A stretch of DNA of 64,000 bases, from IMG/VR virus record IMGVR_UViG_3300003890_000025, positions 15,149 through 79,148 of that record. One strand, written 5' to 3'. Positions 9,938 through 39,681 of the stretch are shown here, one piece after another. This DNA comes from a virus. The translations under genes were made by a program, and so were the position numbers. Each line of letters begins with the position of its first letter. Position 1 is the stretch's first letter. Under the pieces are notes generated by a model that searched no databases, had not been told where the DNA came from, and saw nothing but the letters and a program-made list of their open reading frames with translations.

Positions 9938-9942
9938 TTTTA

Positions 9943-16245: not shown

Positions 16246-16256
16246 TTCGTCTCACC

Positions 16257-18299: not shown

Positions 18300-18318
18300 A
18301 CCTACTTCTATTTGTTTA

Positions 18319-19785: not shown

Positions 19786-19793
19786 AATAACAG

Positions 19794-20102
19794 CTAATTA
19801 TTACCTTCATCTTCATCTACTACGTTTATTAGGTTATTAGTATCTACAGTCTGAGCTATTTTTAATAAATCTTCTGTTTCTATAGATTCTTCTTCTTTAG
19901 AAACTACTGTAGCCGATATAGTAGTAGGGTCTCCTTTAGCTAACATTAGATTTTTTGTTAGTATATCGTATATTCTTACTTCCTCGAAAGTTAAAGTACG
20001 CTCTCTAGCAGCTTGTTTAAGTCTTTCTAGTTGCAACTCTGCTATTTCTTGAGAAGTACTAACTACCTGTACTATCGAGTCTATTTTTTTCTTTCTTGGC
20101 AT
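19794..20102 (-). CDS. Hypothetical, possible terminase small subunit
   Basis: Position directly upstream of terL only. Confidence 0.4.
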   Translation of the reverse strand: MPRKKKIDSIVQVVSTSQEIAELQLERLKQAARERTLTFEEVRIYDILTKNLMLAKGDPTTISATVVSKEEESIETEDLLKIAQTVDTNNLINVVDEDEGNN

Positions 20103-20147
20103 AAAAAAGTAGACCCTCCCTGGTCAAACAAGCTCTTCCTAAGAATA

Positions 20148-20399
20148 TTATTTTCTATATAGGCTCATAGTAGCTAACTTAGCTTCCATATTAGATATTC
20201 TAGTTTCGAGCTCTTCGGAAATACTCTTAGCTTTCCTGTGGTTTAAAAACTTTAATAGACCTTCTAGTACTATTATGGAGATACAGAGTAAAACTCCTCC
20301 AATAGGAAAATCTCCTCTAATAATAAAACTAGATACCATTGATACAAATGAAATTAGAAACCAAGGCAATAAACCTAATTTATTAAACAAGTTATGCAT
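20148..20399 (-). CDS. Two-TM membrane protein
   Basis: Two hydrophobic segments and short coiled coil. Confidence 0.5.
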   Translation of the reverse strand: MHNLFNKLGLLPWFLISFVSMVSSFIIRGDFPIGGVLLCISIIVLEGLLKFLNHRKAKSISEELETRISNMEAKLATMSLYRK

Positions 20400-20745
20400 T
20401 TACTTGACCTGATCCTTCTAAGTCTTTTTGTTCTTGTGCTTTAGCTTCTTCTTGCTTTTTGATTTCTTCATAAGCAGCTCTAGCAGCTTTAACCCACTCA
20501 TGATTCTCATATTGAGATAGTAATTGCTTGTAGGTGGCTGTTAAAAATTCTACTAGTTGTACAACTACTTTGGCGTGAGTCCCAGAAAAATTACCACTAA
20601 TAACAGTACTTCTATAAGCAGTAAAATCTCCTAAAGCTTTTTCTAATTCTTTTACATCTTCTGGTCTTTGATTAAAATCAAACTTATTATATGATGAATT
20701 ATCTTGGCTGTTATTGTTATTTAAATCTTGTGAGTTATCTGACAT
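20392..20745 (-). CDS. Hypothetical protein
   Basis: AAGGAG RBS, 117 aa. Confidence 0.6.
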   Translation of the reverse strand: MSDNSQDLNNNNSQDNSSYNKFDFNQRPEDVKELEKALGDFTAYRSTVISGNFSGTHAKVVVQLVEFLTATYKQLLSQYENHEWVKAARAAYEEIKKQEEAKAQEQKDLEGSGQVNA

Positions 20746-21083
20746 ATTAAATCTCCTTTTATACTGCCCTAAAAGGGTAAGTTATTGGTGAATCGTCCTA
20801 TTTAAGGGTAGATTCTATTTATAGAGTTATTAACTGTCTTACAGCATTTTTTTCTAATATTTTCCCAAACATGGGATTATCTGCGTTAGTCATCAACTCT
20901 AACTATATTTGTTTACCTCTATTCCTGATTATTACTCTCTAAGAATAATATAACCTTTTTAGAGATATCCAACTCTTCTTTTAATGCTCTAATTTTATCT
21001 TGAGCATCCCTTAAATCAGTCATTAGAGACTTCACCCTTTCCTCTAAGACTTTAATCCTATCTAAATATTCTGATTCAATCAT

Positions 21084-21452
21084 TTACGCCTCTGGTATAT
21101 CCTCATCTTTATTAAGTAAAGATTTAACCTCCTCTGAAAAAGTTTTGAAAAACTCTTCTTCTTTTTCAGATATATTCTCAGTTTTTTCGGTATTATATTC
21201 ATCGTCTTTGTTAAGAGAGGTTAAGAATTTATCCAACTCTGCTATAACTAAATCCTTAGTTTTTTTATTTTTAGATTTATATGCTACAAATAACATTCCC
21301 TCTAATCCCTGAATAAGATATGTCCACTGTATTAGTAATAATTTTTTACTAGTCTCTGATTTCAAGTCTCTAATAGAGTTACATAAATCTTTTACAACTT
21401 CAACTATACTTCGTACTTGATCTACTGAAAGAGCTTTAATTTCTTGTTTCAT
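21084..21452 (-). CDS. Hypothetical protein
   Basis: 122-aa ORF coupled to the protease gene. Confidence 0.55.
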   Translation of the reverse strand: MKQEIKALSVDQVRSIVEVVKDLCNSIRDLKSETSKKLLLIQWTYLIQGLEGMLFVAYKSKNKKTKDLVIAELDKFLTSLNKDDEYNTEKTENISEKEEEFFKTFSEEVKSLLNKDEDIPEA

Positions 21453-21453
21453 A

Positions 21454-22206
21454 TTAATATATCCTCAAAAATTCTTTAATATCTTCTAGTGGAACCATAT
21501 AACCATTTCTCATATCATTTGATGCAAACATAATACCCACTAAATTACCCCAGAAATTTACAGTAGCACTACCTGAATTCCCTGGGTATATTAATACATC
21601 TGTTTCATTAGCTTTTAATTTTCTAACACATAAATCAATATCAAAAAATTTATATATAATTCCACTTCTATTAGAACACATCTCTTCAGTCAGTCCTATA
21701 CCAACTAGTAAATTTACTTCTGTTTTTTCTAAAAAAGTACCTAAAGACTCTCTTAAAGGCCTAAGTCTAGGATGACCTATAACTCGAATTTTATCACCAA
21801 TGTTTAAAGAACTAGCTACAGATATACCTTTTTTACCAGCCAGTGGCTCAATTATACATAAATCATGATTTTTATAAATCTCTATAACTTTTCTTTTTAT
21901 AACTCTATTAGAGTTAGGTACTGTTACTAGCACCTCTCTTTCACTAGAACTTAAAGCAGCCTGACATACATGAGCATTTGTAACTATATAAGAATTGCCA
22001 CTATTAGCTTTAACATGAAATCCAGTTCCACCTGCTTGTTCTATTTCTGAATGTAATACCTTTACAGTCACTAAACCAATTTTATTAAATAAATATTTGC
22101 CATGCCAAGTAGACGCATTTAATGCTATAAATACTATGACAGCTAATAAACTAGCTAAGCCTAGTATTTTTTTACTTTTTTTAAAAATAGTTTTAATATA
22201 TCTCAT
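21454..22206 (-). CDS. Membrane-anchored trypsin-like (S1) serine protease
   Basis: N-terminal TM; TNAHV, HDLC, GNSGS catalytic triad motifs. Confidence 0.85.
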   Translation of the reverse strand: MRYIKTIFKKSKKILGLASLLAVIVFIALNASTWHGKYLFNKIGLVTVKVLHSEIEQAGGTGFHVKANSGNSYIVTNAHVCQAALSSSEREVLVTVPNSNRVIKRKVIEIYKNHDLCIIEPLAGKKGISVASSLNIGDKIRVIGHPRLRPLRESLGTFLEKTEVNLLVGIGLTEEMCSNRSGIIYKFFDIDLCVRKLKANETDVLIYPGNSGSATVNFWGNLVGIMFASNDMRNGYMVPLEDIKEFLRIY

Positions 22207-22268
22207 TTATTACCTTCCTATGTTATTGGTTTTAGTCATATATTTATATTACTACGTTAATATAATAC

Positions 22269-22298
22269 TTGTCAATAGGTTTATTAACGTGCTATAAT
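22269..22298 (+). promoter_or_regulatory. Sigma-70-type promoter TTGTCA-N18-TATAAT (extended TG)
   Basis: Consensus match; ATG 22305 lies 6 nt after the -10. Confidence 0.6.
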
Positions 22299-22304
22299 AA
22301 AAAT

Positions 22305-22454
22305 ATGATCAGATTACTAGTACCATACTTATTCCTAACACTAGGGTGGGCTAGTTATTTTAACTCAAAATCTAAATTAGATTATATAGTTACAATGATT
22401 ATATTTATAATCGCATTTATACTATTTCTAATCGTATTGTTTAGGAGAAAATAA
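22305..22454 (+). CDS. Small two-TM protein
   Basis: In-frame ATG at the predicted TSS; hydrophobic. Confidence 0.5.
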   Translation: MIRLLVPYLFLTLGWASYFNSKSKLDYIVTMIIFIIAFILFLIVLFRRK

Positions 22455-22708
22455 TGAAAAAAAGATATAAAAACAGAAAAAGAATAGAAAAAATGGCAGA
22501 TAGGCTAGAAATGGCTGATATAACCAATAATGTATTAGTCCCAAACCCCATAACTGGAGAAAAGGTTTATAAACTAGTCAATAATAGACGTAGACTAGTA
22601 AAAGGTATTCTAGCCTTACCTTTAGAAGAACAAGAGCGTAGACTAAATGAAATGGAGCTAAGACTTAATAACTTGGAGAATAATAAAAATGATCCTAACA
22701 GCATCTGA
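22454..22708 (+). CDS. Hypothetical protein
   Basis: TAATG coupling. Confidence 0.55.
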   Translation: MKKRYKNRKRIEKMADRLEMADITNNVLVPNPITGEKVYKLVNNRRRLVKGILALPLEEQERRLNEMELRLNNLENNKNDPNSI

Positions 22709-23225
22709 AATACTAAAGCGTCTTGATAAGGATATAATTATAACTCCGTTTAACGTAAAACACTTAGCAGTAAATTCAGTAGACCTAACCTTAGATAAGA
22801 CTTTAAAGGTCTATACAACGCCTGTATTAGACTTTAAGAAGGCTAATACTACCATGGATATGGTTATACCAGAAGACGGTCTAGTTTTACAACCTGGTAG
22901 GGTTTATTTAGGTCAGACCGTTGAATATACAGAAACCAATAATCTAGTACCTGTGCTATATGGTAAATCTAGTACGGGTAGGCTAGGTTTATTCGTTCAC
23001 GTAACAGCGGGTTTTGGTGATATAGGCTATAAAGGTACTTGGACTCTGGAATTAGTAGCTACACAGCCAGTTAAAGTATACCCTAATATGAAAGTATGTC
23101 AAATTATCTACCACACTATTGAAGGTTCATCACTTAAGAAATATAAAGGTAAATATCAAGGAGCTAGAGAAGTTATAGCTAGTAAGTCATTTGAAGATTT
23201 TAATTCTGATACTGATAAAAAGTGA
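22689..23225 (+). CDS. dcd: dCTP deaminase
   Basis: NSVDLTL, GKSSTGRLGLFVHVTAGFGDIGYKGTWTLE, KYKGKYQ. Confidence 0.92.
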   Translation: MILTASEILKRLDKDIIITPFNVKHLAVNSVDLTLDKTLKVYTTPVLDFKKANTTMDMVIPEDGLVLQPGRVYLGQTVEYTETNNLVPVLYGKSSTGRLGLFVHVTAGFGDIGYKGTWTLELVATQPVKVYPNMKVCQIIYHTIEGSSLKKYKGKYQGAREVIASKSFEDFNSDTDKK

Positions 23226-23264
23226 ATAAGTAAAAAGGTATATAATTTATATATTACTATTACT

Positions 23265-24224
23265 CTACTCTGGGAGAGTACCTTCTCCTTTGAGTCTACC
23301 CTTGAGTCTTTCTAATAGTAAACGTCTCCTATTTCTAGCAGATTCTTCTTCCATCTCTTTAATAGTTTTAGCTATATTTTCTTGTTCTCTCCTAAACTTA
23401 TCACCTACTATAAATCCTTCATCACCGTGTTCTCTTAGGATCCTATTAGCCTCTTCTAGGTTACCTTCTTTTAGACTATCCTTATACCTCTGCAATAAGT
23501 CTTTTCTAGCCTCTTTAGCGTCTAGTATATCCACTGCCCTAGCTGCTTCTGGTTCTTTTACAGCTAATTCCATAGCCTTATGTCTAAGTCCAGTATCATC
23601 GCTAGTCATTAACCTATTTATCTCATTATCCTCTAGCTCATTTAATAAATCGTCAGTCCTACGATCCCTTAGTCTAGCACTAGCTAATCTTCTCCTAAAC
23701 TCTTCAGGACTCTTAGAAGCTAGTCTTATAGTCTCTTCTTCAGCTAGCGGTAATTCTCCACCTAACCAATCGTATTCAGGCAAATCAGACTCTGCCTTGC
23801 TAAGTTTAGTAGTCTTAGGTTTACTAGTAGATACTTCTTTAGCTAAGTCTCTCTCTACTTCTGATTTTAAAGCCTTTAACTCTCTGCCAGCGTATTTTGG
23901 TGCTATAGCTCCCTGTTCTGCTACTTCACCGAAACCACCTTTAGGTAAAGGTCTAGCTCTCCTCATAGACCTTAAAACTTCTGCTAGCTTACCACCCTTT
24001 TCTAATATTTTACTAGTTATAACTGGAGCAGCTCCTAAACTAGCTCCACCTACTAATAAGCCACTTAAGTCATCAGGAGATGCGCCTATTACCTCACCTT
24101 CTTTATAAGGACTATAGCTTAGTAAGTTTACTAAGCCTTTTAGTATACCTGCTTCACTAGGTTCTATAGCTTGTTCTTTAGCTAGACGTTTATGTAATTC
24201 TTGTATACTTTCTTTGCGTGACAT
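23265..24224 (-). CDS. Hypothetical charged helical protein, possible internal virion protein
   Basis: Downstream of late-promoter motif at 24673; C-terminal RRRLLLERL. Confidence 0.55.
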   Translation of the reverse strand: MSRKESIQELHKRLAKEQAIEPSEAGILKGLVNLLSYSPYKEGEVIGASPDDLSGLLVGGASLGAAPVITSKILEKGGKLAEVLRSMRRARPLPKGGFGEVAEQGAIAPKYAGRELKALKSEVERDLAKEVSTSKPKTTKLSKAESDLPEYDWLGGELPLAEEETIRLASKSPEEFRRRLASARLRDRRTDDLLNELEDNEINRLMTSDDTGLRHKAMELAVKEPEAARAVDILDAKEARKDLLQRYKDSLKEGNLEEANRILREHGDEGFIVGDKFRREQENIAKTIKEMEEESARNRRRLLLERLKGRLKGEGTLPE

Positions 24225-24227
24225 TTA

Positions 24228-24428
24228 TTAGTTCTTCTTGAAGAAGTCTCTTAGCTTTTTAAAAGCTGGTTCATTAAAAGGCTTAGACATTTCTTCTAGT
24301 GTCTGTCTACCTCTACCCCAACCAGCTTTAGCTAACTTTTCTCTATATTCTCTCTTACGTCTTTCTTTTTCTTCTTCGTCCAACTCTAAGTCTTTATCTT
24401 CTAAGTCTTTGTAATCACCTCTTGGCAT
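24228..24428 (-). CDS. Small charged protein
   Basis: Probable start MPRGDYKD at 24428 with GAGG RBS. Confidence 0.55.
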   Translation of the reverse strand: MPRGDYKDLEDKDLELDEEEKERRKREYREKLAKAGWGRGRQTLEEMSKPFNEPAFKKLRDFFKKN

Positions 24429-24432
24429 ATTA

Positions 24433-24663
24433 TTAACCCTCTGTGTTAACGGACAGCCCGTTAGAGGCTGTCCGATCTTCACTATATTTACCTTGTTTTA
24501 TATCTTCTAAAGCTTTAAGGTAAGTTTCATTAGCTTCTTCTTCAGTTCTATGGTAACCGAAATGTTTAGGCTTACCATTAACTTTAATAACTACTTTCCA
24601 TTTCTTAATTCTACGAGTTTTATCGTACGATACGCCTTTGTATTTAGATGATTTAGGTAACAT
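24433..24663 (-). CDS. Stand-alone AP2-domain DNA-binding protein
   Basis: SKYKGVSYDK...KWKVVIKVNGKPKHFGYHRTEEEA pattern. Confidence 0.8.
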   Translation of the reverse strand: MLPKSSKYKGVSYDKTRRIKKWKVVIKVNGKPKHFGYHRTEEEANETYLKALEDIKQGKYSEDRTASNGLSVNTEG

Positions 24664-24672
24664 TATTAACCC

Positions 24673-24690
24673 TCTATTGAGTATTTGTTT
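24673..24690 (-). promoter_or_regulatory. Putative late promoter AAACAAATACTCAATAGA
   Basis: Recurring motif. Confidence 0.6.
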
Positions 24691-24694
24691 AACG

Positions 24695-25170
24695 TACTCA
24701 ACCCAAACTAAGGAAGTCTATATAGGCTCATTCTATATAGTGTTGATACTGACTATGTGGTAAATTTTGGGTAGGCTTCGCCTATATAGACCTATTATGT
24801 TTATAATAGAAAGGCCTTGTTAGGTTGACCGCCTAGTAACATTCTGCACCGTACTCGGTTACCCCCTGACACTGACGCTAGTGGGTTAGGCTATGTCAGT
24901 AGAGAGGTGCTTTCGGGGCTAGGCTGTTACTGCCCATAGAAAGCCTCTTTCTCGCAGAGCTGTATGTTGTCTTTAGCTGGGTTATAAGGGTCTTAGCCTC
25001 TTTAGTCCAGCTCCATTTCAGCTTATTAAGCATCCCTGTAGACCTCACTCCGCTTGTCTCAGACTATACCCCCAGAGTCATACCTTATTTCAGGTGTTCC
25101 ACTACCATAATTAGTAGTGTTCTGGGTTAAGACACGTTTTGTACTCTATACGTCACCGTATAGGTCGCAT
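24695..25170 (-). ncRNA. Candidate structured non-coding RNA (~470 nt)
   Basis: No ORF >=60 aa; GC-richer; TGCTATAAT promoter at 25175-25183; multiple stems incl. CTATACG-GTGA-CGTATAG. Confidence 0.45.
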
Positions 25171-25174
25171 ATTT

Positions 25175-25207
25175 ATTATAGCATATTAAATCCAAATATG
25201 CTATAAT
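25175..25207. promoter_or_regulatory. Back-to-back extended -10 promoters forming a perfect 13-bp inverted repeat
   Basis: ATTATAGCATATT-N7-AATATGCTATAAT. Confidence 0.7.
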
Positions 25208-25216
25208 TATTTTATT

Positions 25217-25495
25217 ATGTCTAAAGGTATGAAAACATTATTCTTTTTAAACATTTTCTATGAATTTATAAATAAATATGATTCTAAATTACCTTTATAC
25301 GCCACTTATACAGAACTTGAATGTTTAAGTAATTCAGAAGAACTTAAGTGGGATAACGGTAAGCCTGCAATAAAATTTCTAAGTAAATATAAACCAATTG
25401 ATCGTAGAGCAGTTATAATAGCAGGACACTATTTCAAAAGTAATGAAAAATTACAAACAATTAAAAACAGACTAGCAAGAAAGTCAATTATATGA
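25217..25495 (+). CDS. Hypothetical protein
   Basis: First ORF after the rightward promoter. Confidence 0.5.
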   Translation: MSKGMKTLFFLNIFYEFINKYDSKLPLYATYTELECLSNSEELKWDNGKPAIKFLSKYKPIDRRAVIIAGHYFKSNEKLQTIKNRLARKSII

Positions 25496-26064
25496 AACTC
25501 ATAGCTATAGACCTAGAGCTTAATAACCCTAAAACTAATCAATCTATAATCCAAATAGGTGCAGTGGTAGGAGATTTAAATTTAAAAACTATTATTGAGG
25601 AATATAAAGCCAATATTCGACTACCTGAAGGTGAACTACTACAGGACTATATTAGTAATTTAACTAATATCAAGCCCCAAGAAGTAGAAGGTAACGGATT
25701 AAGTCTAAAAGAGGCTGTAAAAGACCTCCATAACCTAGTCACTAAATACGACTGTTTAAAATCGCCTATAACGTGGGGTGGAGGTGACTTGCCACTCTTA
25801 CGTCAAAAGTACCTAGAATCTCTCAATGGTGAGCCTTTAAACACGTTTAATTGGCCTTTTGGTTGGAGGGAGCTGGACGTAAAAACAGTCTACCAGACTA
25901 GGTGTTTAGCTTTAGGCCTAAAACCACAGGGGTCTTTAGCTAAAAGTATGACTAAACTAGGCCTGAGGTTTCAGGGGACTAAGCATAACGCATTAGATGA
26001 CGCTAAGAATACTTTATTATTATATTATAAGTTATTGGAGGATTATAAAATTAGATTATGTTAA
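25492..26064 (+). CDS. DEDDh 3'-5' exonuclease
   Basis: AIDLEL, IIQIGAV, GGDL, HNALDDA. Confidence 0.88.
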   Translation: MKLIAIDLELNNPKTNQSIIQIGAVVGDLNLKTIIEEYKANIRLPEGELLQDYISNLTNIKPQEVEGNGLSLKEAVKDLHNLVTKYDCLKSPITWGGGDLPLLRQKYLESLNGEPLNTFNWPFGWRELDVKTVYQTRCLALGLKPQGSLAKSMTKLGLRFQGTKHNALDDAKNTLLLYYKLLEDYKIRLC

Positions 26065-26459
26065 ACTTTAAAATTCAATCTTTTATAAATATAGTTTTAA
26101 TTTTTATTCTTATTAATCTTAATCAACACTGTAATAACACTGATAAAACACCGATAAAGCCACCAACGACAGAACCCAGTCCTACTCCAGAGCCTAAGCC
26201 TGAAGAAAATTTAGTAGCTAAAGGTAAAGCTATTTACCGTAGAAACTGTATTAGTTGTCATAATATTAACCCTAAGTTAGTTGGTTCTGTAGGGCCTGAT
26301 TTATACGGGTCTAGCTTAGATTTATTAAGGTCTAAAGTTATATATGGAACTTACCCAAAAGGCTATAAACCTAAACGTAATACTAAAATAATGCCTAAGT
26401 TCCCTAGTCTTGAACCTAATATAGAGGCTATAAAAGAGTTTCTAAATTCTGATTTATAG
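26058..26459 (+). CDS. Exported monoheme c-type cytochrome
   Basis: Hydrophobic N-terminus, Pro-rich linker, KGKAIYRRNCISCH heme motif, GPDL, distal MPKF. Confidence 0.85.
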   Translation: MLNFKIQSFINIVLIFILINLNQHCNNTDKTPIKPPTTEPSPTPEPKPEENLVAKGKAIYRRNCISCHNINPKLVGSVGPDLYGSSLDLLRSKVIYGTYPKGYKPKRNTKIMPKFPSLEPNIEAIKEFLNSDL

Positions 26460-26477
26460 AAACAAATATTTTTTAGA
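26460..26477 (+). promoter_or_regulatory. Putative late promoter AAACAAATATTTTTTAGA
   Basis: Recurring motif, here on the + strand. Confidence 0.6.
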
Positions 26478-27110: not shown

Positions 27111-28010
27111 CTAATCATCATTAGTACTATCAAATGTTGAGTAATAGTCTTCATTTTCTTCTTCATCTTCCTTTGTATAATTTTTTAATCTTTCTATAGC
27201 TTCTTCTAACACTAAATCAAAACATTTAACACTTATAATTAAATCCTTTATTTTATCTATAGTAAAATTATGTGTCTTAGTTACCCATTTGCTTAACTCT
27301 GTTTCGCTAATATCAGGCATTTTATGCTTTAAATAAGCTTCTCTAGCTTTTTCTGTTAAAGGACCTATTTCTATAACAGTAGCGAACCTACTAGGTCTAC
27401 TAACTAAATTCTTAGGTATACGGTCTATATAGTTAGTAGTAGCTATATATACTACGTTATCTAGTTGTAATTCACCGTCTAATAGAGCTAAAAACCTACT
27501 ATTATTAACGTAATAATGGAAATCCTCCCAAATAACTACTATAGTTAGACTAGGTTGAACTATTCTGAGTTTAGTTATTAAGTTATAAAAATTATCAGGG
27601 TCAGGACTTAAAATACAAATACCTCCATTGTCAATAACAGTATTAGCTACTTTTAGTAGACATGAAGTCTTACCAGACCCCGCTGGGCCGTACATTAATA
27701 TACCCCTTTTATATAGCATGCCGTATTGTTTATACTTTTCTTTTGTTTCAGGTCTAAAAAATTTATTTATCTCATTTATAACTTTATGAGATTGTGAATC
27801 AGGTAAGTCTAATAATTCTTCAGTCTGTATAGTTTTAGGACCCAAATGTAACCCTATATGAGGTTTCTCCAATACCTCGTATACCCCTGGAGGTATTACC
27901 TCAGTAAATAAAGGCTTATTAGTAGGTGTTATATTACCACTAGGACTAATTGAAAACTCTGTATAAGTCTCTTTAATTAGTTTTACTTTATTTTTATTAA
28001 AAATACTCAT
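27111..28010 (-). CDS. AAA+ ATPase (classical clade)
   Basis: KRGILMYGPAGSGKTS, WEDF, LLDG, ATTN, SRPSRF; no GAFTGA. Confidence 0.85.
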   Translation of the reverse strand: MSIFNKNKVKLIKETYTEFSISPSGNITPTNKPLFTEVIPPGVYEVLEKPHIGLHLGPKTIQTEELLDLPDSQSHKVINEINKFFRPETKEKYKQYGMLYKRGILMYGPAGSGKTSCLLKVANTVIDNGGICILSPDPDNFYNLITKLRIVQPSLTIVVIWEDFHYYVNNSRFLALLDGELQLDNVVYIATTNYIDRIPKNLVSRPSRFATVIEIGPLTEKAREAYLKHKMPDISETELSKWVTKTHNFTIDKIKDLIISVKCFDLVLEEAIERLKNYTKEDEEENEDYYSTFDSTNDD

Positions 28011-28063: not shown

Positions 28064-28342
28064 CTACTGTATTTTAATATATTTAGGACACCACTCACTG
28101 TGGTAGTTACTCCGTATACTAGCAGCACCACATTCACATTTTACTTCACCCTTATTAAAATATAAACTGTAATTAGCTTTAAGGTCACTAAAACTAACTA
28201 ATTTAGTACTTTTAAAGTAAGTCCTATTACCAGTTATAGTAACGTAATCAGTAGAGTAGTCTATTTTATCAACTACCCAAGCATCACCTACTGAGTCATA
28301 TATAATACTACCTACTCTAATTTCATAAAGGTTAATTGCCAT
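28064..28342 (-). CDS. Hypothetical with C-terminal Zn finger
   Basis: CECGA...HSEWCP; late-promoter-like AAACAAATA just upstream. Confidence 0.55.
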   Translation of the reverse strand: MAINLYEIRVGSIIYDSVGDAWVVDKIDYSTDYVTITGNRTYFKSTKLVSFSDLKANYSLYFNKGEVKCECGAASIRSNYHSEWCPKYIKIQ

Positions 28343-28694
28343 TACGTAAATATTTGTTTTACGTTTACTAGCACTTTAAACCTAGTTACTCAATTATAAA
28401 CTAACCTACTCTACTTACTTATATAACTTACAAAATAACCTAATCCATAACTAGTTATTTATTAGCTAGTACTAAGTCTATTAGTTACTCAATATAATTT
28501 AAAACCTTACCACCTAGTACTAGTCTTAGACCTAATACTAAACTTAGCTTTAAACGCTTTTAAAAGCTCTATAAGCTTTTTAAATAGGTGTACGTGTAGG
28601 GTAGTAGCCTAACACTAGTCTAAACTCTTATAAAGGCTTTAAAACAGTTATAGCTAGTATAGTCTATTTATAGTTACTCGTTGGTTAGGTTAGC

Positions 28695-28786
28695 TGCTGG
28701 GAGGTTACTCGGGTGGAGGAGGGGAGAGTGAGTGTGTGGGAAGCCCCCGACCGAGCCCCCTCGACGTCCCCTGGGGGGAGGGGGGT
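28695..28786. other. G/C island at the transcription divergence point (candidate terminus/packaging or origin signal)
   Basis: G-runs and C-runs (CCCCCTCGACGTCCCCTGGGGGGAGGGGGG) within very AT-rich non-coding DNA. Confidence 0.4.
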
Positions 28787-28919
28787 TGCAATAATCATGC
28801 CAAAATGTTAGGCATGACTTTTGCTACTGCAATAATCGTGCCAGTTAATTGGCATAGTTCTTGCTATAGCAATTATAATGCCTAAGAATAGCTGTTGGTC
28901 CATTGGCCCATTTCTTGCT
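28787..28919. promoter_or_regulatory. Array of six alternating-orientation sigma-54 (-24/-12) sites
   Basis: (-)TGGCATGATTATTGCA 28787-28802; (+)AGGCATGACTTTTGCT 28810-28825; (-)TGGCACGATTATTGCA 28828-28843; (+)TGGCATAGTTCTTGCT 28850-28865; (-)AGGCATTATAATTGCT 28868-28883; (+)TGGCCCATTTCTTGCT 28904-28919. Confidence 0.85.
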
Positions 28920-28972
28920 AATGACCCATATATATATTTATATAAGTTTAAATTATTAATTTATTTATAAAG

Positions 28973-29115
28973 TGTTTAAACTTTAGACAGAGTGTCTAAA
29001 AGTTAATAGCTTAATAATAATCCATAGTTAGCTTAAACTGTCTAAAAGTTAGTCTAGTTTTTAAAATAGCTAGGTCTGTTTTATCAAGGACTTAGCTAGT
29101 GGCACAGGCTATGCA
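28973..29115 (+). promoter_or_regulatory. Enhancer-type sigma-54 promoter: UAS-like sites + IHF site + -24/-12
   Basis: TGTTTAAACTTTAGACA (28973), TGTCTAAAAGTTA (28993, 29039), IHF TATCAAGGACTTA (29082-29094), TGGCACAGGCTATGCA (29100-29115). Confidence 0.75.
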
Positions 29116-29160
29116 TTAGTTAAAGTGTAGACTGAACGGTTACTAAAGAGAGGTGTTAAT

Positions 29161-29382
29161 ATGCTTTCTATGTTTATTGAAGAATATCAAGACCTATCGA
29201 CAGGGGATTGGTATAGAGCTTACGTAGACGTATGGTCTAATAGACTAGGCTATAAAGAGCTAGACGTTAGTAGCGTGGAGAAGTATATACACGGTATGTG
29301 GGTTAGGGTGTTAGAAGTACCTGACCACGTTAAAGACGGGCTCTTAGAGACTGCCGTATTTAAATATGAAAATAGAGTTTAG
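29161..29382 (+). CDS. Small early-type hypothetical protein
   Basis: GAGGTG RBS; first gene after the sigma-54 promoter. Confidence 0.65.
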   Translation: MLSMFIEEYQDLSTGDWYRAYVDVWSNRLGYKELDVSSVEKYIHGMWVRVLEVPDHVKDGLLETAVFKYENRV

Positions 29383-29425
29383 TCATTAAAGGTTTTATTT
29401 TGGTCATTTAAAAGGAGGTATATAT

Positions 29426-29557
29426 ATGGATAGAGTTTTAAACGTAATCTTAATAATAGCAGCCACTGTGGCTATATATAGCACTGTAATGGCTTTTAAA
29501 GAGTTTGACCCTCATCAAGTAGCACTAGATTTATTAAGTATACGAGAGGGGAGGTAA
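29426..29557 (+). CDS. Small single-TM protein (43 aa)
   Basis: AAGGAGGT RBS; MDRVLNVILIIAATVAIYSTVMAF. Confidence 0.65.
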   Translation: MDRVLNVILIIAATVAIYSTVMAFKEFDPHQVALDLLSIREGR

Positions 29558-29564
29558 TATATAT

Positions 29565-29768
29565 ATGAATAAATTAGAGGATATTAGTTCTAGGTCTACT
29601 AAAGAACTAAGTTTAATAGTGTTTAATACGGAAGAGCTGTATAAAAATAGGTTTAACTTGCCCGTTCTGTTTAAACTACTAGACAGTAGGTATATATATA
29701 CCACTAGTCAATTAAGTATACTACTAAAAGACTTGTATATAGATTTCTTTGAAATAGACCCTAAGTAG
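29565..29768 (+). CDS. Small hypothetical protein
   Basis: GGAGGT RBS. Confidence 0.65.
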   Translation: MNKLEDISSRSTKELSLIVFNTEELYKNRFNLPVLFKLLDSRYIYTTSQLSILLKDLYIDFFEIDPK

Positions 29769-29862
29769 AGTAACTCCTAAAAAAGGGGTATAATGAGCTA
29801 AAAAGAGCTAAAAATAGGAGAATACTATATAGCTCTCTAACATGTATAGAAAGGGGTGTTTT

Positions 29863-29952
29863 ATGAGACTGGCTTTGATAGTGGCGGCTTGGTGGTGGAT
29901 GCCTTGGTTTCTAGCCCTCCCCATCACCTTCTTCCTACTTTCCGAAGAATGA
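29863..29952 (+). CDS. 29-aa hydrophobic peptide
   Basis: AAAGGGGTG RBS; MRLALIVAAWWWMPWFLALPITFFLLSEE. Confidence 0.55.
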   Translation: MRLALIVAAWWWMPWFLALPITFFLLSEE

Positions 29953-30161
29953 TCAATTATATTAAATACTTAACACTAAGTAAGACTTTTTACAGCACCT
30001 TAACTTAGTGACATAACACTAAAGCGGTACGTATAATAAATTACACTATAATGTACCATATATGTTAATATATATTAACCTATATTACTATATATATTAA
30101 TAATATATTTATATTATAAAGACTTATAGACTTATTATAATAAATTTAATATAAATATGTA

Positions 30162-30190
30162 TTGACTATACTTAAATATATAGGTATAAT
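30162..30190 (+). promoter_or_regulatory. Sigma-70-type promoter TTGACT-N17-TATAAT
   Basis: Near-consensus match. Confidence 0.75.
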
Positions 30191-30234
30191 CAATTTTTAA
30201 ATGTAGTCGCTTTTTAAGAAAGGAGCTTAAGAAA

Positions 30235-30576
30235 ATGTTAACCTACTCTAAATGTAAGGATTTATTAGGCGTTAAAGATAAAATAAAATTAGAACGTAAT
30301 ACTTACCTCATTAAAAACTTAGAAGGAAATACTATAGTTTTTAAAGTGAAGTTTTATAGTACAAATATTTTAACCATTTATGATAACGGTTTTTTTAAAT
30401 ATAACACAAACAGGTGGTTTACTGTTTCGACTAAGGCCAGATTGAATAGGTACGGTCCGGTTAAGGTTTACCAAAAAAATAAAATATGGTACATAAACGG
30501 AATACCGTTTAAAGATAATTTGATATATGATTCTATAAATAATAATTTAGAATTAACTAACTATAAGGGAGTTTAA
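30235..30576 (+). CDS. Hypothetical protein
   Basis: AAGGAG RBS. Confidence 0.65.
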   Translation: MLTYSKCKDLLGVKDKIKLERNTYLIKNLEGNTIVFKVKFYSTNILTIYDNGFFKYNTNRWFTVSTKARLNRYGPVKVYQKNKIWYINGIPFKDNLIYDSINNNLELTNYKGV

Positions 30577-30931
30577 ATTATGAGAATTTTTCATATATTT
30601 TCAAAAACAAGGCATAGACATTTGAGGGTTTACTTAGGTGAAATCCGAGCAGATACTCTATTTGAAGCAATGAAAAAAGCTCAATTAGTATTTCAAAAGT
30701 CTATACACGACCTAGATTTAATAGAGCTTTAATAATTATGGAACTTTTAGAAAAATTATTATTAATAGGGTTTAATATAATATTAATATTAGGAGGGATT
30801 TTATGTCGGATTGGTCAATGAGGTTACTTTTAAATAAAATAGACTTAGATAATACTATAGCTATAATTATACCTAACTTTTGTTGTGTTTTTATAAACAA
30901 AAACAGTAACTTAGAAGTATAGAGGTGTTTT

Positions 30932-32224
30932 ATGAATAATAATAATAATAATGATTTAGATAGAATAGTGGTTGGTGATCGAGTATATTTAGAAAACAAA
31001 ATCGGTCTAGAAGAACGACTCATAGAACATTTAACGCGAAGTGATTATTTAATTGTAACTGATATCAGAAATAACCTTTGCGATATAGTTACCCCGAACG
31101 GGACAAAAATAAACATTTTATTTTTACACAGATTTAAAAAAATACCTTCACTTAAAATTAATGAAGATACAAAAATTGTGTTAGAAAACAATAGGTTAAA
31201 ATTAATTACTAATAAAGAACACCTTTCAAGAAAAATTAACAAAAAACAGCAACTATTAATTAATGATTCGTTAAAGTATGGAAATAATTATGCTTTATCA
31301 TTTTTTGGTCATAAATTAATAAATCAAACATGGAAGATACTTATAGATAAATACAAAGATAAATCCGTTCTAAATAATATACCTCTAGCTACAGATGTAG
31401 AGGTACCTCCTATCTGCTACAGACCAACTAACGTCTTTTTATCTTTACAAAAGACGCTATACAATCCGCTCAGTGAAAAAAGACCGATTGGAAAGGATTT
31501 TGGACGTTACTTTGGAGTAGAAATCGAATGTTTCATACCTAATAAAAACTTCGACCAAATAGCTGAATTGTTAAGATCAAATAAAATAAAGAACGTCTCT
31601 CTTGCCAGAGATGGTTCTTTAAGCATTGACAAAGATTATTGGACTCCTGTCGAATTCAGAGTTTTAACAAAAATAAATGATTTTAATAATTTAGAAAAGT
31701 TATTGGATTTATTAAACTCTTGGGGTGCAGAGGTCAATAGTACTTGCGGGCTACACGTGCACCTAGATATGAGGCACCTAAAAAGTAAAGTCTCGGTTAA
31801 GAAGAGAGCTGAAAAATTGTTAAAATTTTTACCAATGCTCAAGGCGATGGTACCTAAAAGTCGTATTGAAAACGAATTCTGTAAACTTGATATAAGCAGT
31901 TTTGGAAATAGGTACGCAGCTATAAACCTGGAATCTTTTAAAAAACATAAAACCATTGAAGTACGACTTCACAGTGGGACTATTGATAAAACCAAAATCA
32001 TTAACTGGTGCAAGTTATTGTATATTATAATTAATTCAAAAATTGATAAATTTTATGATTTTGATTATAACATCACGAAAGCTTGTAAAATGTTAAAATT
32101 AAGTCAAGAATTGGAATTTTATGTTCGTTCTAGAATCCGAAAATTCAAGCCAATTCTTTTAGAAGTAGACCAGTTAAAAAATCAACCAAATCAGCCAATA
32201 GTACAACCTCACAATTCATTATAA
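30932..32224 (+). CDS. Putative amidoligase (COOH-NH2 ligase type 2)
   Basis: FGVEIEC, RDGSL, NSTCGLHVHLD, RYAAIN, TIEVRLHSGT. Confidence 0.85.
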   Translation: MNNNNNNDLDRIVVGDRVYLENKIGLEERLIEHLTRSDYLIVTDIRNNLCDIVTPNGTKINILFLHRFKKIPSLKINEDTKIVLENNRLKLITNKEHLSRKINKKQQLLINDSLKYGNNYALSFFGHKLINQTWKILIDKYKDKSVLNNIPLATDVEVPPICYRPTNVFLSLQKTLYNPLSEKRPIGKDFGRYFGVEIECFIPNKNFDQIAELLRSNKIKNVSLARDGSLSIDKDYWTPVEFRVLTKINDFNNLEKLLDLLNSWGAEVNSTCGLHVHLDMRHLKSKVSVKKRAEKLLKFLPMLKAMVPKSRIENEFCKLDISSFGNRYAAINLESFKKHKTIEVRLHSGTIDKTKIINWCKLLYIIINSKIDKFYDFDYNITKACKMLKLSQELEFYVRSRIRKFKPILLEVDQLKNQPNQPIVQPHNSL

Positions 32225-32251
32225 GCCGTTAGAAAGAAAGGACATAAAAAC

Positions 32252-33157
32252 ATGTGTAAAATTTTTGCAATGTCAAATACTAGTAAGTTAACCAGAAAAA
32301 ATTTCATAAATTTACTAAGAATAGTTCATCCAATTATAACACATTCTGAAGTAGATGGTTTTGGGTGGGCAGTTCTAGGTGAATCAGGTATTTACGGAGA
32401 AAAATATATCAATCCGACGGAATTTGACTTCAGAATTTTTAATAATGTTAAGGAAAATAAAATACTAAAAGAATTAATAAAAGAAGAGGCATCTTCATTT
32501 GGCCAGGCATCTAAACCGATAGGGCCGCTTTTAATCCACGGCAGAACTAGTACAAATGACAAAACATTAACAAACACGCATCCATTTATTAAAAATAATT
32601 GGACATTGATTCACAATGGAGTAGTAGATAATCTTGGAGAAACGTATATTATGGATTCTACTTGCGATTCGGAGCACCTTATACATTATCTTTCGTCAGG
32701 TGGAATAGAATCTATTGAAAAATACGTCAGTGGTTATTACGCCGTGGCAGCTATTGACCCTAACGGAAACTTGCATGTATTTAAAGACGACATAGCATCA
32801 CTCTATGTAGCTTATATAAAAACTATTGATAGCTTTATTTTCTCTACCACAAAGGACATGATTTCAATAACTTGTAAGAAAATGAAATGGGAATACACAG
32901 AAATAAATCCCATGAAAGGTAATTTTTATATGGTTATAAATAAAGAAAATGAATTATTATATAGTAGGAAAATAAAACCTTTGAAAGTTTATTACGACTC
33001 TACTAGACAAAAAGCGTCAATAGCCTTTAAGGGCAGTGTAGACACAATACTATCAGAGTCTATAAATGAAACTCATCACTTAAGTAGATTGTCTTTAAGA
33101 GATTTTGAAGACACAGCCTACTACACAACAGACAACTTTAATAAAAATAAAACATAG
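32252..33157 (+). CDS. Class II (Ntn) glutamine amidotransferase
   Basis: N-terminal MC, DGFG, HGRTST, NTHPF, HNGVV, CDSE. Confidence 0.88.
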   Translation: MCKIFAMSNTSKLTRKNFINLLRIVHPIITHSEVDGFGWAVLGESGIYGEKYINPTEFDFRIFNNVKENKILKELIKEEASSFGQASKPIGPLLIHGRTSTNDKTLTNTHPFIKNNWTLIHNGVVDNLGETYIMDSTCDSEHLIHYLSSGGIESIEKYVSGYYAVAAIDPNGNLHVFKDDIASLYVAYIKTIDSFIFSTTKDMISITCKKMKWEYTEINPMKGNFYMVINKENELLYSRKIKPLKVYYDSTRQKASIAFKGSVDTILSESINETHHLSRLSLRDFEDTAYYTTDNFNKNKT

Positions 33158-33912
33158 GTTAAATTATGTTCAAAAGAATTAAAACTAATATAGATAATAA
33201 CTTATTAAAAACACTGGCTGCGAAGTTAAATAGGTGTTTAAATAATTTAAATAAAAACCAAGTTGATCATAATAAAGATTTAATAGAAATAGCTGACTTA
33301 GTACAAAAAGTTATCTATGAATTTGAAAAAATAGAGAAGGAGTTAGACAATGTATATTATAAGCACAAAATCAAAGAATAAACTACTAAAAGAATTCATA
33401 TCATATTTTAATAGAAAATTCATGAGGGATTCAGAAGAAGAAGATAAGAATTGGGTAGAATATTATTATTTGACCAAACTTATTGAATATATAGAAACTT
33501 TAGAAGAAAATGGAGGTAAAACTAATGAAAATTTTAAGTAGATTTGTAGCTTATTTATATTTTATCATGGTTATAATCGTGATTATATTAAGCATGCCTG
33601 TAATACTATTTAAAAGTCATAACAAGAGAAAAGGTAAGGTATGACACAAAAAGAAATAAAGTCTTGTATAGTCGATGATAAATATCTTGTAAAAAAGATT
33701 AAAAATGGCTCTTATAGAGTATTTAATATCGACCGTGGGGATATAGTAGCTGATTTCCCTGTCTTCCCTATACTAGACCCATCTTCTAAAATTGAAGTCA
33801 TAGAATTTGAAGATTATGAAGAAGTCAATAAAATTAAGTGTTTGTGTGATATTATCGTTTTACTAAACAATGGCTGTAAATGTGGAGCCATAGAAAAAGA
33901 AAGGACATTTAA

Positions 33913-34248
33913 ATGAATTATAATTTTCCAAATAACATTGATTTAAAAAAGAAATTAGGTAAAATACAGCCTGAAGTATGGAATAAATACGTATTTAAAT
34001 TTAAAGGAAATTTTCTTATACACGATGAGGTTATAACGGAGGACGCAGTTATAGCAAAAACACAAGAAGCGGCTGAACGTATTTTATTTAAGAGCCACGT
34101 AAACCTAACTAAAAAGTGCTTCTATTTGGACAGAGTAGAAGAGATAACATTATTCGAGACACATAAGAGTACTGTTACTCCTAAAGAAGATATACTACTA
34201 CATAATTTAGAAGATCAGTACAGTTCTAATGATGATGAGAATTATTAG
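33913..34248 (+). CDS. Hypothetical protein
   Basis: One of a run of short coupled ORFs at 33166-34248. Confidence 0.55.
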   Translation: MNYNFPNNIDLKKKLGKIQPEVWNKYVFKFKGNFLIHDEVITEDAVIAKTQEAAERILFKSHVNLTKKCFYLDRVEEITLFETHKSTVTPKEDILLHNLEDQYSSNDDENY

Positions 34249-34538
34249 TAAAGTATATAGTTATATTAGTTTTTTTACAATAGGCTATAGAATAATTGAT
34301 AGGAGTTTTAGTTATGTATAACAAAGGAATTCTACCAACACTTTCTGACAACGAGCAAAGCCATTCTAACCGTTTTAGGGGGATGGGTTCACCAGATTCA
34401 CTTAGAACATCAATTAACTCAAAGGAATCCGAATCAGTACCAATACTAAATAATTCCTTTATAAAATCTGATTCTAAATCATCGTTTACCATTTATAAAT
34501 ATAGTTGTTTTGTGTATGGAAAGGAAAGGAGTTAAGTT

Positions 34539-35042
34539 ATGACAAAATATAATACCAGACACATTTCAAAAGTTTTAGTCACTATAATAGCAGTATTAAT
34601 ACATTTATTTTGGTACGTCAGTTTTAGTAAAGCAGCCAATGAAGTAAAACTAGATGAGTGTGCTCGTAAATTAGGCTTTAAACGCTCTATAAGCCTCTAT
34701 AAGACGTTAATAGAGGTAGCTAATACCACTGACCTAGACCCTATTGATCTGTTAACTATAGCGATTTTAGAAAGTTCTATAAACCCTGAGGTCATAAGCT
34801 TTAACAAAAACCGTACCTATGACATAGGTTTACTAGGAGTCAATAGTAAATCTGCTGAACACTATTGCAAAGATTTAAATGTTTTCAATGAATACGACTC
34901 AATACTATGTGGAGCTAAAATATTGAAACGTAGACAAAAGACACAAGGTTTCATGTGGCAAGGCTCTTACCACAGCTTTACTATGTCTAATAAAATAAAT
35001 TATTATAATAAATTCATGAGGTTAAGAAATGCGTGTAGGTAA
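34539..35042 (+). CDS. SLT-family lytic transglycosylase, exported
   Basis: N-terminal TM; AILESS...DIGLLGVN...GSYHS. Confidence 0.8.
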   Translation: MTKYNTRHISKVLVTIIAVLIHLFWYVSFSKAANEVKLDECARKLGFKRSISLYKTLIEVANTTDLDPIDLLTIAILESSINPEVISFNKNRTYDIGLLGVNSKSAEHYCKDLNVFNEYDSILCGAKILKRRQKTQGFMWQGSYHSFTMSNKINYYNKFMRLRNACR

Positions 35043-35544
35043 ACTGAATGTATCACTATCAAAATCTGGTAACAATGAGCCAGTAATACATTTAAAACTT
35101 AAAAACGAGGTTATAGATGGTATTACGCACAGATACTATACCATAACAGACGACGGATTAGAATTAAGATTAAGACTGTCCACATTAAAGGGTATAGTAA
35201 AGTACGTTAAAGGTATCCTCACAAAGATGGGCAAGAACGAATGAAAGAGTTTCAGAATAGACAAATAGTCATCGTATTAGACGTACCTACAGGGAGCGGT
35301 AAGGTGGACATGTGGGCAGTCTATATAGGCCCTGCCTCAGGCACTAATAAAGGTAAGTTAAAAGTATGGTTATTAGGAGAAACAGAGTTCTACGCAGAAC
35401 CCGATAAGGTACTAAGTAAAGAAGAACATAGGAAACTAGGAGGTAGGAGTGTTAAATAAAATGTAAATACCTGTAAAAATTAAAATAACTAAACAGTAAG
35501 ACGATACGATTGTAAAGGAGTTATAAGTGTGTTATAATAAAAAC

Positions 35545-35858
35545 GTAGGTTTAATAGCCAAACTGTTAGCCTTAAAAACAGTGGCGCAGAACGAAACACT
35601 GCACGATGCGGCTAGGCTTAGTAAAAAGCGTAACGTGAAGGAGCCTCGTACCCCACCACGTAGGGATATGAACAGCCAATTAGACGCTCGTAAACATAGA
35701 GATGACGTTCTAGTCTGTGGTCGAATAGAGTTGCTTAGCTCCTTGCTTGGCTCAAAGCGCGTATTCGAATTTAAGGTAGGTCACTTGTTAGAATTAGTCT
35801 CGCTTAATAAGTCCAAGGTTCAATATGGTGCTAGTACGCGCCAAGGGTGGGGTGTATC
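35545..35858 (+). ncRNA. Candidate structured RNA / 5' leader
   Basis: TTGTAA-N17-TATAAT promoter at 35510-35538; long-range pairings TACCCCACC/GGTGGGGTG and GCGCGTA/TACGCGC. Confidence 0.45.
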
Positions 35859-36290
35859 ATGAGTTTTGATAAATGTGGTAAATCAATGTATAGGGTTAAG
35901 CTACGATCTGGTGAAGTATATTTAGTCGGTAGAGTTAAGGGTAGTAAAACGGTTGATGTCAGGGGGTTAGATCACATGTATTATGACTGGGATCTATATG
36001 ATATAAAGACAAGTTTAGGTATTGATGAGCATAGTGATTTTAAGAAACCTAATCCACCTTTAGCTAACAGTAATAGTGAACTTAATAAAGAAGACAACAT
36101 AGAGAATAGGTTAAGTGAGATAAAGTCAAGTATTGAGAGATTTGAGAGGTGGCAGAAAAACCCTGAACTAGATATAAGAAGTGAAAAAGAATTATCAAGT
36201 TTTAATGAAGATAAAACCTACATTGTACTTTTTATATTTTTTGTATTATTATTTATTGCTTGGCTTAGTTTAGTCATGTTATACTTATAA
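35859..36290 (+). CDS. Hypothetical protein with C-terminal TM
   Basis: ATG 35859; hydrophobic C-terminus. Confidence 0.55.
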   Translation: MSFDKCGKSMYRVKLRSGEVYLVGRVKGSKTVDVRGLDHMYYDWDLYDIKTSLGIDEHSDFKKPNPPLANSNSELNKEDNIENRLSEIKSSIERFERWQKNPELDIRSEKELSSFNEDKTYIVLFIFFVLLFIAWLSLVMLYL

Positions 36291-36479
36291 TAAGAGGAAT
36301 TATGAAACATAGGAAAGTAATAAAAAGGTATAGTGATAAGTGGTTAGACCATAAGTCGTTTGTTGAAGAAGATGGTAAGTACGTATTACGTAGTGCTAGA
36401 CAATTAATGACTAAGATCAGTAATGACAAAGAGAAAAATAATAAAACCTTAACTATTGAAGAAAGGGAGAATTTAGAAA

Positions 36480-37079
36480 ATGAAAACATCAGAAAAGATT
36501 GATATTTTACTTCCAGCTCTATTTAAAGCCAAAGGAGAATTAAGGGATTTGGTTAAGAGTTCTGATAATCCTTATTTCTCTAGTACCTATGCTGATCTAA
36601 ACACTCATTTAGAAGGTACAGAACCTATTCTAAGGAATAATGGCTTTATAATCCTACAACCAGTGGTTAGGGATGAAAGAGGCAGTTTTGTAGAGACTAT
36701 ACTTATGCACGCTAGTGGACAATATATATCCTCTCAAATGGATTTAGTATCCGCTAAAGGTAGCATGCAAGATTTAGGTAGTGCTGTTACATACGCTAGA
36801 AGGTATACTTTAGGCTCTATTCTAGCTCTAAGGGCAGTAGACGACGACGGTAACGCAGCTACTGGACTAGACTTAAATAAAAAAGCAGTAAACAAAGATT
36901 TTAAAAAAGAAGTAAAAGAGACTAAGTCTAGTGAGCCCGTAAAAACACAAACAGTTGTAACTAACGAAACAGCTACAAGCTCGACCAACACAATAAAAAG
37001 TAAACCGACTCCTTTTAGGAGACCTAACAGTAAGGCAGTACCTACTACTACTACAAACGGTAGTGGGTGGGGATCTTAG
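36480..37079 (+). CDS. ERF-family ssDNA annealing protein
   Basis: NPYFSSTYADL...HASGQYISS...QDLGSAVTYARRYTL...DDDGN. Confidence 0.9.
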   Translation: MKTSEKIDILLPALFKAKGELRDLVKSSDNPYFSSTYADLNTHLEGTEPILRNNGFIILQPVVRDERGSFVETILMHASGQYISSQMDLVSAKGSMQDLGSAVTYARRYTLGSILALRAVDDDGNAATGLDLNKKAVNKDFKKEVKETKSSEPVKTQTVVTNETATSSTNTIKSKPTPFRRPNSKAVPTTTTNGSGWGS

Positions 37080-37131
37080 TATTATAAACATTTAATAAAA
37101 CTATAATCTAAATAATAGGAAGGTATTACAT

Positions 37132-37374
37132 ATGGCATATAAAAAAATTGGATCAGTATTAAAAGGTAAAGAAGGTGGTTCTTATATTAAGATTGATGAG
37201 GATGTTAATCTTAAGAAGGGTACATTTATAAATGTATCAGACCCTAGAACAAAACCTGATACTCTACTAGAACTAGGTAAAATTTCAGAAGAAGTCTATC
37301 ATAAAATGAAAGAAAAGGCAGATAAAATTCCAGAGTTTGTTTTATTTGAACTTTCTATAAAATCTGACGAATAG
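37132..37374 (+). CDS. Hypothetical protein
   Basis: AGGAAGG RBS, follows ERF. Confidence 0.6.
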   Translation: MAYKKIGSVLKGKEGGSYIKIDEDVNLKKGTFINVSDPRTKPDTLLELGKISEEVYHKMKEKADKIPEFVLFELSIKSDE

Positions 37375-37405
37375 TATTGTAAGGCATTAATTATATTTAA
37401 TATAT

Positions 37406-38413: not shown

Positions 38414-38520
38414 TATTTACAACTATAATTCAATAAGGTAGTATATTATTAGTTTAGTGATTTAAATTAATTATAAGTAAAATATAATAGTTTTAGATAA
38501 ATAAAAATAAAAGAAAGGAA

Positions 38521-39485: not shown

Positions 39486-39490
39486 TAAAA

Positions 39491-39670: not shown

Positions 39671-39681
39671 TTAAGGAGAGG

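Follow-up and report, generated by a model that had tools for sequence, protein, structure and literature searches.

We analysed a 64-kb stretch of viral DNA, hereafter the window, which corresponds to bases 15149–79148 of a 79,148-bp virus record that is 95% complete. The record derives from a hot-spring metagenome; the phage is uncultured, and we found it in four hot-spring runs, none of them listed as RNA, solely as low-depth Logan contigs. Its main gene-free divergent region spans 820 bp (28343–29160) and contains an array of six sigma-54-type boxes. On the left of this region a minus-strand ORF of 92 amino acids is followed by an AAA ATPase gene, with the terminase, portal and capsid genes also on the minus strand to the left of the array; on the right begins a 19-kb plus-strand block (29161–47969). 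Coordinates of the features are collected in Table 1.

Table 1. Features of the divergent region and the genes bordering it (window coordinates).
Feature	Position	Strand	Remarks
Classic AAA ATPase (P0001), not an enhancer-binding protein	27111–28010	−	PF00004 match; syntenic in G005 and G006
First leftward gene, 92 aa	28064–28342	−	no family hit
G-rich/GC-rich tract ending GGGGGGAGGGGGG	28680–28786		abuts box 1; read from sequence
Sigma-54-type box 1, TGGCATGATTATTGCA	28787–28802	−	12/12
Sigma-54-type box 2, AGGCATGACTTTTGCT	28810–28825	+	11/12; nose-to-nose with box 3
Sigma-54-type box 3, TGGCACGATTATTGCA	28828–28843	−	12/12, full consensus
Sigma-54-type box 4, TGGCATAGTTCTTGCT	28850–28865	+	12/12; nose-to-nose with box 5
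Sigma-54-type box 5, AGGCATTATAATTGCT	28868–28883	−	10/12
Sigma-54-type box 6, TGGCCCATTTCTTGCT	28904–28919	+	11/12; off the 40-bp period
Very AT-rich spacer	28920–28972		about 50 bp of nearly pure A+T; read from sequence
Candidate enhancer/operator, palindrome ACTTTAGACA-GAG-TGTCTAAAAGT	28973–29051		third TGTCTAAAAGT at 29039
IHF-like site TATCAAGGACTTA	29081–29093	+	WATCAA-N4-TTR; may be chance in AT-rich DNA
Lone sigma-54-type promoter-like box TGGCACAGGCTATGCA	29100–29115	+	predicted +1 near 29126
First gene of rightward block, 73 aa	29161–29382	+	no family hit

The phage encodes a family-A DNA polymerase, a primase-helicase and a ribonucleotide reductase, and we found no RNA polymerase gene in its genome. 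PF00158 activators and the Sigma54 DNA-binding and core-binding domains (PF04552, PF04963) are all absent from the genome as well. We considered the AAA ATPase beside the array as a possible sigma-54 activator and ruled it out, as it is a classic AAA protein without the GAFTGA loop, with YjoB and p97/VCP-type ATPases as its best solved relatives; word-pattern searches of IMG/VR returned no relatives of it. There are weak hints that the host belongs to the Bdellovibrionota: the portal shares 29% identity with its counterpart in a Silvanigrella phage and the phage cytochrome c resembles Bdellovibrionota clusters. A tRNA search of the phage for host clues found none, and among isolated phages there was no nucleotide match to the array region.

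Three further features of the genome were recorded in passing. The cytochrome c gene (PF00034; 26058–26459, plus strand), an unusual auxiliary gene for a phage, sits beside genes for an RNase T-type exonuclease and a SHOCT-domain protein. Downstream of the lone box, the plus-strand stretch 30932–44693 encodes an amidoligase, a glutamine amidotransferase-like protein, a GT2 glycosyltransferase and DNA methyltransferases, and could serve as a module for modifying DNA or a surface. The motif WAACAAMT-N5/6-TA occurs 11 times in 6813–26475 against 6.4 expected, mostly in gene sense and just before structural-gene starts (6791, 7358, 9853, 18299), and could belong to late promoters or leaders; its strict pattern has no match at 28340–28359.

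Six boxes in 133 bp

We scored each box over the 12 positions of the 16-bp consensus TGGCAYR-N4-TTGCW. As an earlier note on this DNA had claimed, six 16-bp matches to the RpoN consensus lie within 133 bp, GG-N10-GC is exact in all six, their strands alternate −,+,−,+,−,+, and they occupy non-coding DNA. This intergenic DNA lies between 28342 and 29161, and the only ORF overlapping the array is a 49-aa GTG frame. The one site that the note had called perfect is box 3. The note's same-strand spacing of 41, 40 and 40 bp was reproduced for boxes 1–5 (41 and 40 bp on the minus strand, 40 bp on the plus strand), as was the 2-bp distance between the 16-mers of nose-to-nose boxes, equivalent to TTGC-N4-GCAA. 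The 6–7-bp distance between back-to-back boxes describes two gaps, of 7 and 6 bp, but not that between boxes 5 and 6, which is 20 bp; box 6 thus breaks the period, lying 54 bp from box 4.

GGCA-N6-TTGC words occur seven times in the whole 79-kb genome, five of them in the array. Allowing at most one mismatch to TGGCAYR-N4-TTGCW, the window holds seven matches, six of them inside 350 bp; 300 sequences simulated under a first-order Markov model averaged 0.9 matches, with two as the largest cluster. The two full repeat units agree at 18/24 consensus positions versus 5/10 free positions; since the consensus was kept while free positions drifted, the array is not a fresh tandem duplication. This difference, together with relatives that keep the boxes in differing flanks, supports the proposal that these are selected sites rather than a simple repeat. 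A sigma-70 reading of the region was rejected: there are nine sites versus 5.5 expected, the cross-phage consensus has no −10 hexamer, and two sigma-70 matches fall inside the array only because TTGGCA resembles TTGACA.

Between the array boxes and the nearest genes lie 240–530 bp, and the boxes are split evenly between the two orientations. One explanation for sites so placed is a decoy, in which dead-end closed complexes would titrate scarce sigma-54 as the phage genome replicates, turning off host sigma-54 regulons for motility, stress, nitrogen and RNA repair, and perhaps also an early sigma-54 promoter of the phage itself. The near-consensus scores of the boxes (12, 11, 12, 12, 10 and 11 of 12), their distance from genes and the absence of a phage activator all fit such a role, as does the arrangement of paired boxes, which face each other so that at most one complex would load per pair. 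G/C runs beside the outer boxes could also hinder opening. We nevertheless consider a decoy unlikely, partly because the element conserved in this clade is something else, a complete promoter with enhancer-like repeats some 180 bp away.

A lone promoter-like box beside the array

The seventh box, at 29100, shares with the six array boxes a GG and a GC exactly 10 bp apart and a score of 10–12 of 12, and it differs from them in lying co-oriented before a gene at leader length. The predicted leader is 35 nt, and AAAGAGAGGTG, a good ribosome site, precedes the ATG at 29161. Between the array and this box lie the AT-rich spacer, the IHF-like site and a set of repeats: two copies of TGTCTAAAAGT and one inverted copy are found at −135 to −75, and the 11-mer occurs nowhere else in the genome. 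TGTCTA words are also present upstream of the lone box in two relatives (two in G005, one in G006; background 0.7 per kb). No known activator motif was recognised in the TGTCTAAAAGT repeats, which are a candidate activator or repressor site.

We tentatively favour a reading in which the array and the box at 29100 would be sites for the host RpoN holoenzyme that together form a control hub, each face-to-face pair being a compact two-way promoter. The promoter geometry of the lone box, which is kept in relatives, argues for it. The distance of the array boxes from genes and the lack of a phage PF00158 activator, however, count against this reading.

Relatives keep the lone box and vary the array

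TerL searches yielded 22 related loci. The relatives, at 36–58% TerL identity, keep the lone box, whereas the array at the matching locus ranges from zero to nine boxes. In G006 (55% TerL identity), where gene order is kept including the AAA ATPase, a three-box array lies about 160 bp from a lone box that precedes the small-gene block. In G005 (56%), the closest of the complete relatives, the array is absent and a perfect lone box is followed by a predicted leader of 38 nt. More distant relatives (L150/L151, L153, which is G008, L037/L017/L043, and L059; 36–43%) carry three to nine boxes 4–5 kb upstream of terL, in arrays that differ in spacing and orientation; L037, L017 and L043 are near-identical, with no substitutions between them. 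The leader geometry of the lone box recurs with predicted leaders of 84 nt in L017 and 55 nt in G008. Within the plus-strand gene block of G008, boxes mostly follow the direction of the genes, a point for the control hub: six are on the plus strand versus one on the minus strand (five versus one at a score of at least 11). G-rich tracts like that of the window flank the arrays in G006, L150, L153, L037 and L059, and persist in the array-less G005.

Examining the equivalent locus, as the earlier note had proposed, therefore showed boxes that are kept while their spacing, number and flanks change, and the four-turn phasing seen here is not conserved in its exact form. G005 lost the array yet kept the lone promoter, which argues that the array is accessory rather than core and is not needed for that promoter. 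The conserved element of the clade, as read from these genomes, is a productive-looking sigma-54 promoter, and the array is a variable accessory. Arrays at the syntenic locus in G006, L150/L151, L153, L037 and L059 favour the control-hub reading; their absence from G005 counts against that reading and against a decoy alike, and the range from zero to nine boxes weakens the case for a decoy.

The face-to-face pair across viral contigs

To define the pair we used a 32-bp pattern, GGCA-N6-TTGC-N4-GCAA-N6-TGCC, and scanned it over IMG/VR. It occurs in at least 120 contigs with a GC content of 0.30–0.68, many of which carry arrays, and several viral genomes hold two or three separate pairs. The consensus was examined in 117 distinct pairs (234 half-sites) among the matches listed, with GGCA and TTGC alone fixed by the pattern. 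Among these, the positions left open recover the RpoN consensus: a T precedes the GG in 205/234 half-sites, a Y lies one base further upstream in 189/234, the GGCA is followed by C/T, then G/A, then R, and A/T follows the TTGC in 180/234; the −24/−12 spacing does not vary. Complementarity between the inner spacers is 31%, so the pairs are not hairpins. A hairpin, terminator or RNA reading was rejected on this ground and on two others: a search of Rfam gave a chance miRNA match alone (E 0.23), and the G-rich tract at 28680–28786 folds no better than shuffles, with no stable RNA fold.

When the gap between facing boxes was left free (0–24 bp), it was 3–7 bp in 69/85 loci, with a mode of 4, none at 0–2 and few above 8. 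With the predicted +1 set 12 nt past the −12 C, gaps of 3–7 bp give predicted start separations of 16–20 bp, and TTGC-N4-GCAA gives 19 bp. The earlier note had held that convergent pairs so close make poor promoters; this is questionable, since the two starts predicted for a pair, separated by 19 bp, face outward, as in a symmetric bidirectional promoter and not as in colliding ones. In geometry only, the pair agrees with a symmetric bidirectional promoter (opposite strands, divergent starts 7–25 bp apart). The constraint on the gap speaks for the control hub and against a decoy, as titration would not need it. Many genomes, moreover, have a single pair, too few for titration until copy number is high.

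Orientation relative to genes gives a mixed picture. An isolated box points the same way as the next confident gene in 216 cases against 124, a bias consistent with promoters, although at 64% it is far below what pure promoters would be expected to show. Among the matches listed, pairs are flanked by tandem genes in 46 cases, divergent genes in 34 and convergent genes in ten (gap background 61/24/16%); a tandem context more often than a divergent one counts against two-way promoters. The pairs listed lie in large gaps, with a median of 540–700 bp.

A different reader of the boxes, a DNA-binding protein encoded by the phages themselves, would make the likeness to sigma-54 sites coincidental. 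Repeated sites in phage control regions are usually operators or iterons, which speaks for this idea, but we judge it improbable. The match extends to six consensus positions left unconstrained by the pattern, half-site spacing is rigid while the gap between sites varies from 3 to 7 bp, and the motif is the same across very different GC contents and host phyla. Furthermore, the pair-bearing loci among the matches listed have no gene in common except terminase, and this phage genome encodes neither a Sigma54 DNA-binding nor a core-binding domain. A 113-aa protein (30235–30576, plus strand) recurs 1–4 kb from pairs on five contigs that have no other relationship (L003, L023, L095, L111, L115), pointing away from the pair in four of the five and likewise in the window. 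Its family, of more than 7,000 clusters, is a distant relative of Pfam Kyano_Gp96, and no solved structure matches the protein's predicted model (pLDDT 79.5). The family is carried by cyanophages too, so it is probably not sigma-54-specific.

Position relative to the packaging genes

Among the 120 listed loci, terL lies 0.2–4 kb away in 55, with the pair always on its upstream side and never downstream, and a TerS-like gene starts 213–578 bp downstream of the pair in 27. A run of at least six G or C lies within 80 bp of the array edge in 38/114 listed arrays versus 3% of control windows, an 11-fold enrichment, and where terL is in view among these matches the run is on the terL-proximal side in 14 cases against two. 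Loci with such a run include L025, L056, L076, L037, L059, L150 and L153, and the G-rich tract of the window fits the pattern. Runs of at least five G directly downstream of single boxes are not clearly enriched (2.4% versus 1.25%).

These regularities suit an architectural role, in which closed complexes and the G/C run would act as a boundary, roadblock, origin-activating site or packaging landmark bordering the packaging/late module. The unusually large gaps that house arrays also fit, and in this phage the cumulative GC-skew minimum (record 43717, window 28569) lies 218 bp from the array, which is followed by the 50-bp AT-rich stretch. We think this role unlikely, however, as the array here is 9 kb from terL, and pairs occur at two or three separate places in several genomes, unlike a unique cos or pac site or an origin. 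A single site by terS and near the genome ends, as expected for cos or pac, was not what we found in this phage or in the other genomes with several pairs. An origin placed by GC skew was rejected, since the minimum that coincides with the array here is 4–8 kb from the boxes in G008 and G005. We also tried linking pairs to contig ends: many lie near the ends of loci, yet record coordinates place them mid-contig. The earlier note's placement of the array at the leading end of the phage finds no support: the array is mid-contig, and one Logan contig bridges it. In relatives labelled 'DTR', terminal overlaps of 71–123 bp look like assembly circularisation.

The pair is nearly absent from prokaryotic genomes

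Searching 596 Gb of prokaryotic genomes with a stricter form of the pair pattern gave just 12 sites, each of them on a MAG contig. Three of these, in Lachnospiraceae MAGs that lack rpoN (L122, L123, L131), were discarded as coding sequence for the glycine-rich loop of a short-chain dehydrogenase (GGGSGMGLAAAK), leaving nine real pairs. This glycine-loop coding sequence is a false-positive class for any census of the pair. By comparison, 73 viral loci hold at least 80 strict pairs. The MAGs with a pair are labelled Proteobacteria, Planctomycetota, Bacteroidota and Zixibacteria, and eight of the nine with a real pair have the PF04552 Sigma54 DNA-binding domain, the ninth being a 0.9-Mb fragment.

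Sameness of the motif across GC contents of 0.30–0.68 and several phyla fits a universally conserved host reader. Taken with the rigid half-site, the extended consensus, the lack of a shared phage gene and the rpoN-positive bins, it leads us to conclude that the boxes are almost certainly of sigma-54 type and that host sigma-54 probably reads them. The scarcity of the pair in cellular compared with viral genomes would be expected were carrying an array harmful to a cell, a further point for the decoy. Near-consensus boxes and near-absence from bacterial chromosomes fit titration or blocking at least as well as they fit a control hub.

Discussion

What the DNA shows directly is the sequence of the sites and how they are conserved, the promoter-like geometry of the lone box, and a spread of the pair that is virus-specific; that sigma-54 binds, which activator serves it and that the array fires are inferred. 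In the control-hub reading that we tentatively prefer, each face-to-face pair could accommodate a single closed complex, facing either way, and its two predicted starts, 19 bp apart, would point outward. With the repeats and the IHF-like site placed between the array on one side and the lone promoter on the other, a single activator bound at 28973–29051 could reach all seven closed complexes by looping; the phage encodes no enhancer-binding ATPase, so this activator would be the host's. Transcription would then be fired rightward into the 29161–47969 block and leftward toward the AAA ATPase genes, and the array would keep scarce holoenzyme loaded beside the productive promoter.

Several known systems resemble parts of this arrangement. 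Enhancer-dependent sigma-54 (RpoN) promoters of bacteria, such as glnAp2, pspA and nifH, share with the phage sites the fixed spacing of −24 GG and −12 GC and the full extended consensus, and the box at 29100 resembles them further in its upstream repeats, IHF-like site and 35-nt leader. They differ from the six alternating sites in 133 bp, which mostly do not precede a gene and which form a virus-carried element with no activator gene nearby. The datA locus of E. coli, a non-coding cluster of high-affinity sites with an IHF site, titrates DnaA, holding the factor while expressing no gene. The array is likewise a non-coding cluster of probable sites for a host factor, but datA is chromosomal and binds a different factor, and titration by the phage is hypothetical.

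Symmetric sigma-70 bidirectional promoters have a modal start separation of 18 bp, and polymerase in one orientation excludes the other (bioRxiv 10.1101/2020.01.31.928960; PMC12825309). The phage pair is similar in its overlapping cores on opposite strands and in start separation (about 18 bp versus a predicted 19 bp). The sigma-70 promoters, however, use overlapping −10 hexamers and arise from hexamer symmetry, whereas the pair consists of two full 16-bp sigma-54 sites nose to nose, which would fire only with the help of an ATPase activator. Non-productive and intragenic sigma-54 sites thought to hold inactive closed complexes are reported for E. coli and Salmonella (PMC4591121, PMC3844500). 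Such sites are holoenzyme-type and serve no obvious gene, like the phage boxes, but are single, scattered and often intragenic, whereas those of the phage are clustered, paired with a fixed gap, intergenic and virus-specific.

A literature search found no paper on phage arrays of sigma-54 sites, in agreement with the earlier note, which knew of no phage element of such design. New as far as we can tell are the gap distribution of the pair, the 19-bp geometry of its divergent starts, the loss of the array with the promoter kept in the closest complete relative, the polarity upstream of terminase and the G/C run that bookends arrays. To our knowledge, sigma-54 alone among bacterial sigma factors leaves RNA polymerase parked on DNA to await release by an ATPase, and its use by phages is almost unstudied.

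A site layout that is virus-specific across phyla and nearly absent from cells implies a common, undescribed interaction between phages and sigma-54. A broader reading, which we find doubtful but worth stating, is that face-to-face arrays, often bounded by G/C runs, are a widespread means by which lytic phages capture sigma-54 holoenzyme without RNA synthesis. If so, their purpose would be either to deplete host regulons of sigma-54 or to set up a protein barrier or landmark on phage DNA near the packaging module. The element is short, which makes the question directly testable. The interaction that the layout implies may mean a stress-gated start of phage transcription, the silencing of host sigma-54 programmes or a parked polymerase that serves a structural role.
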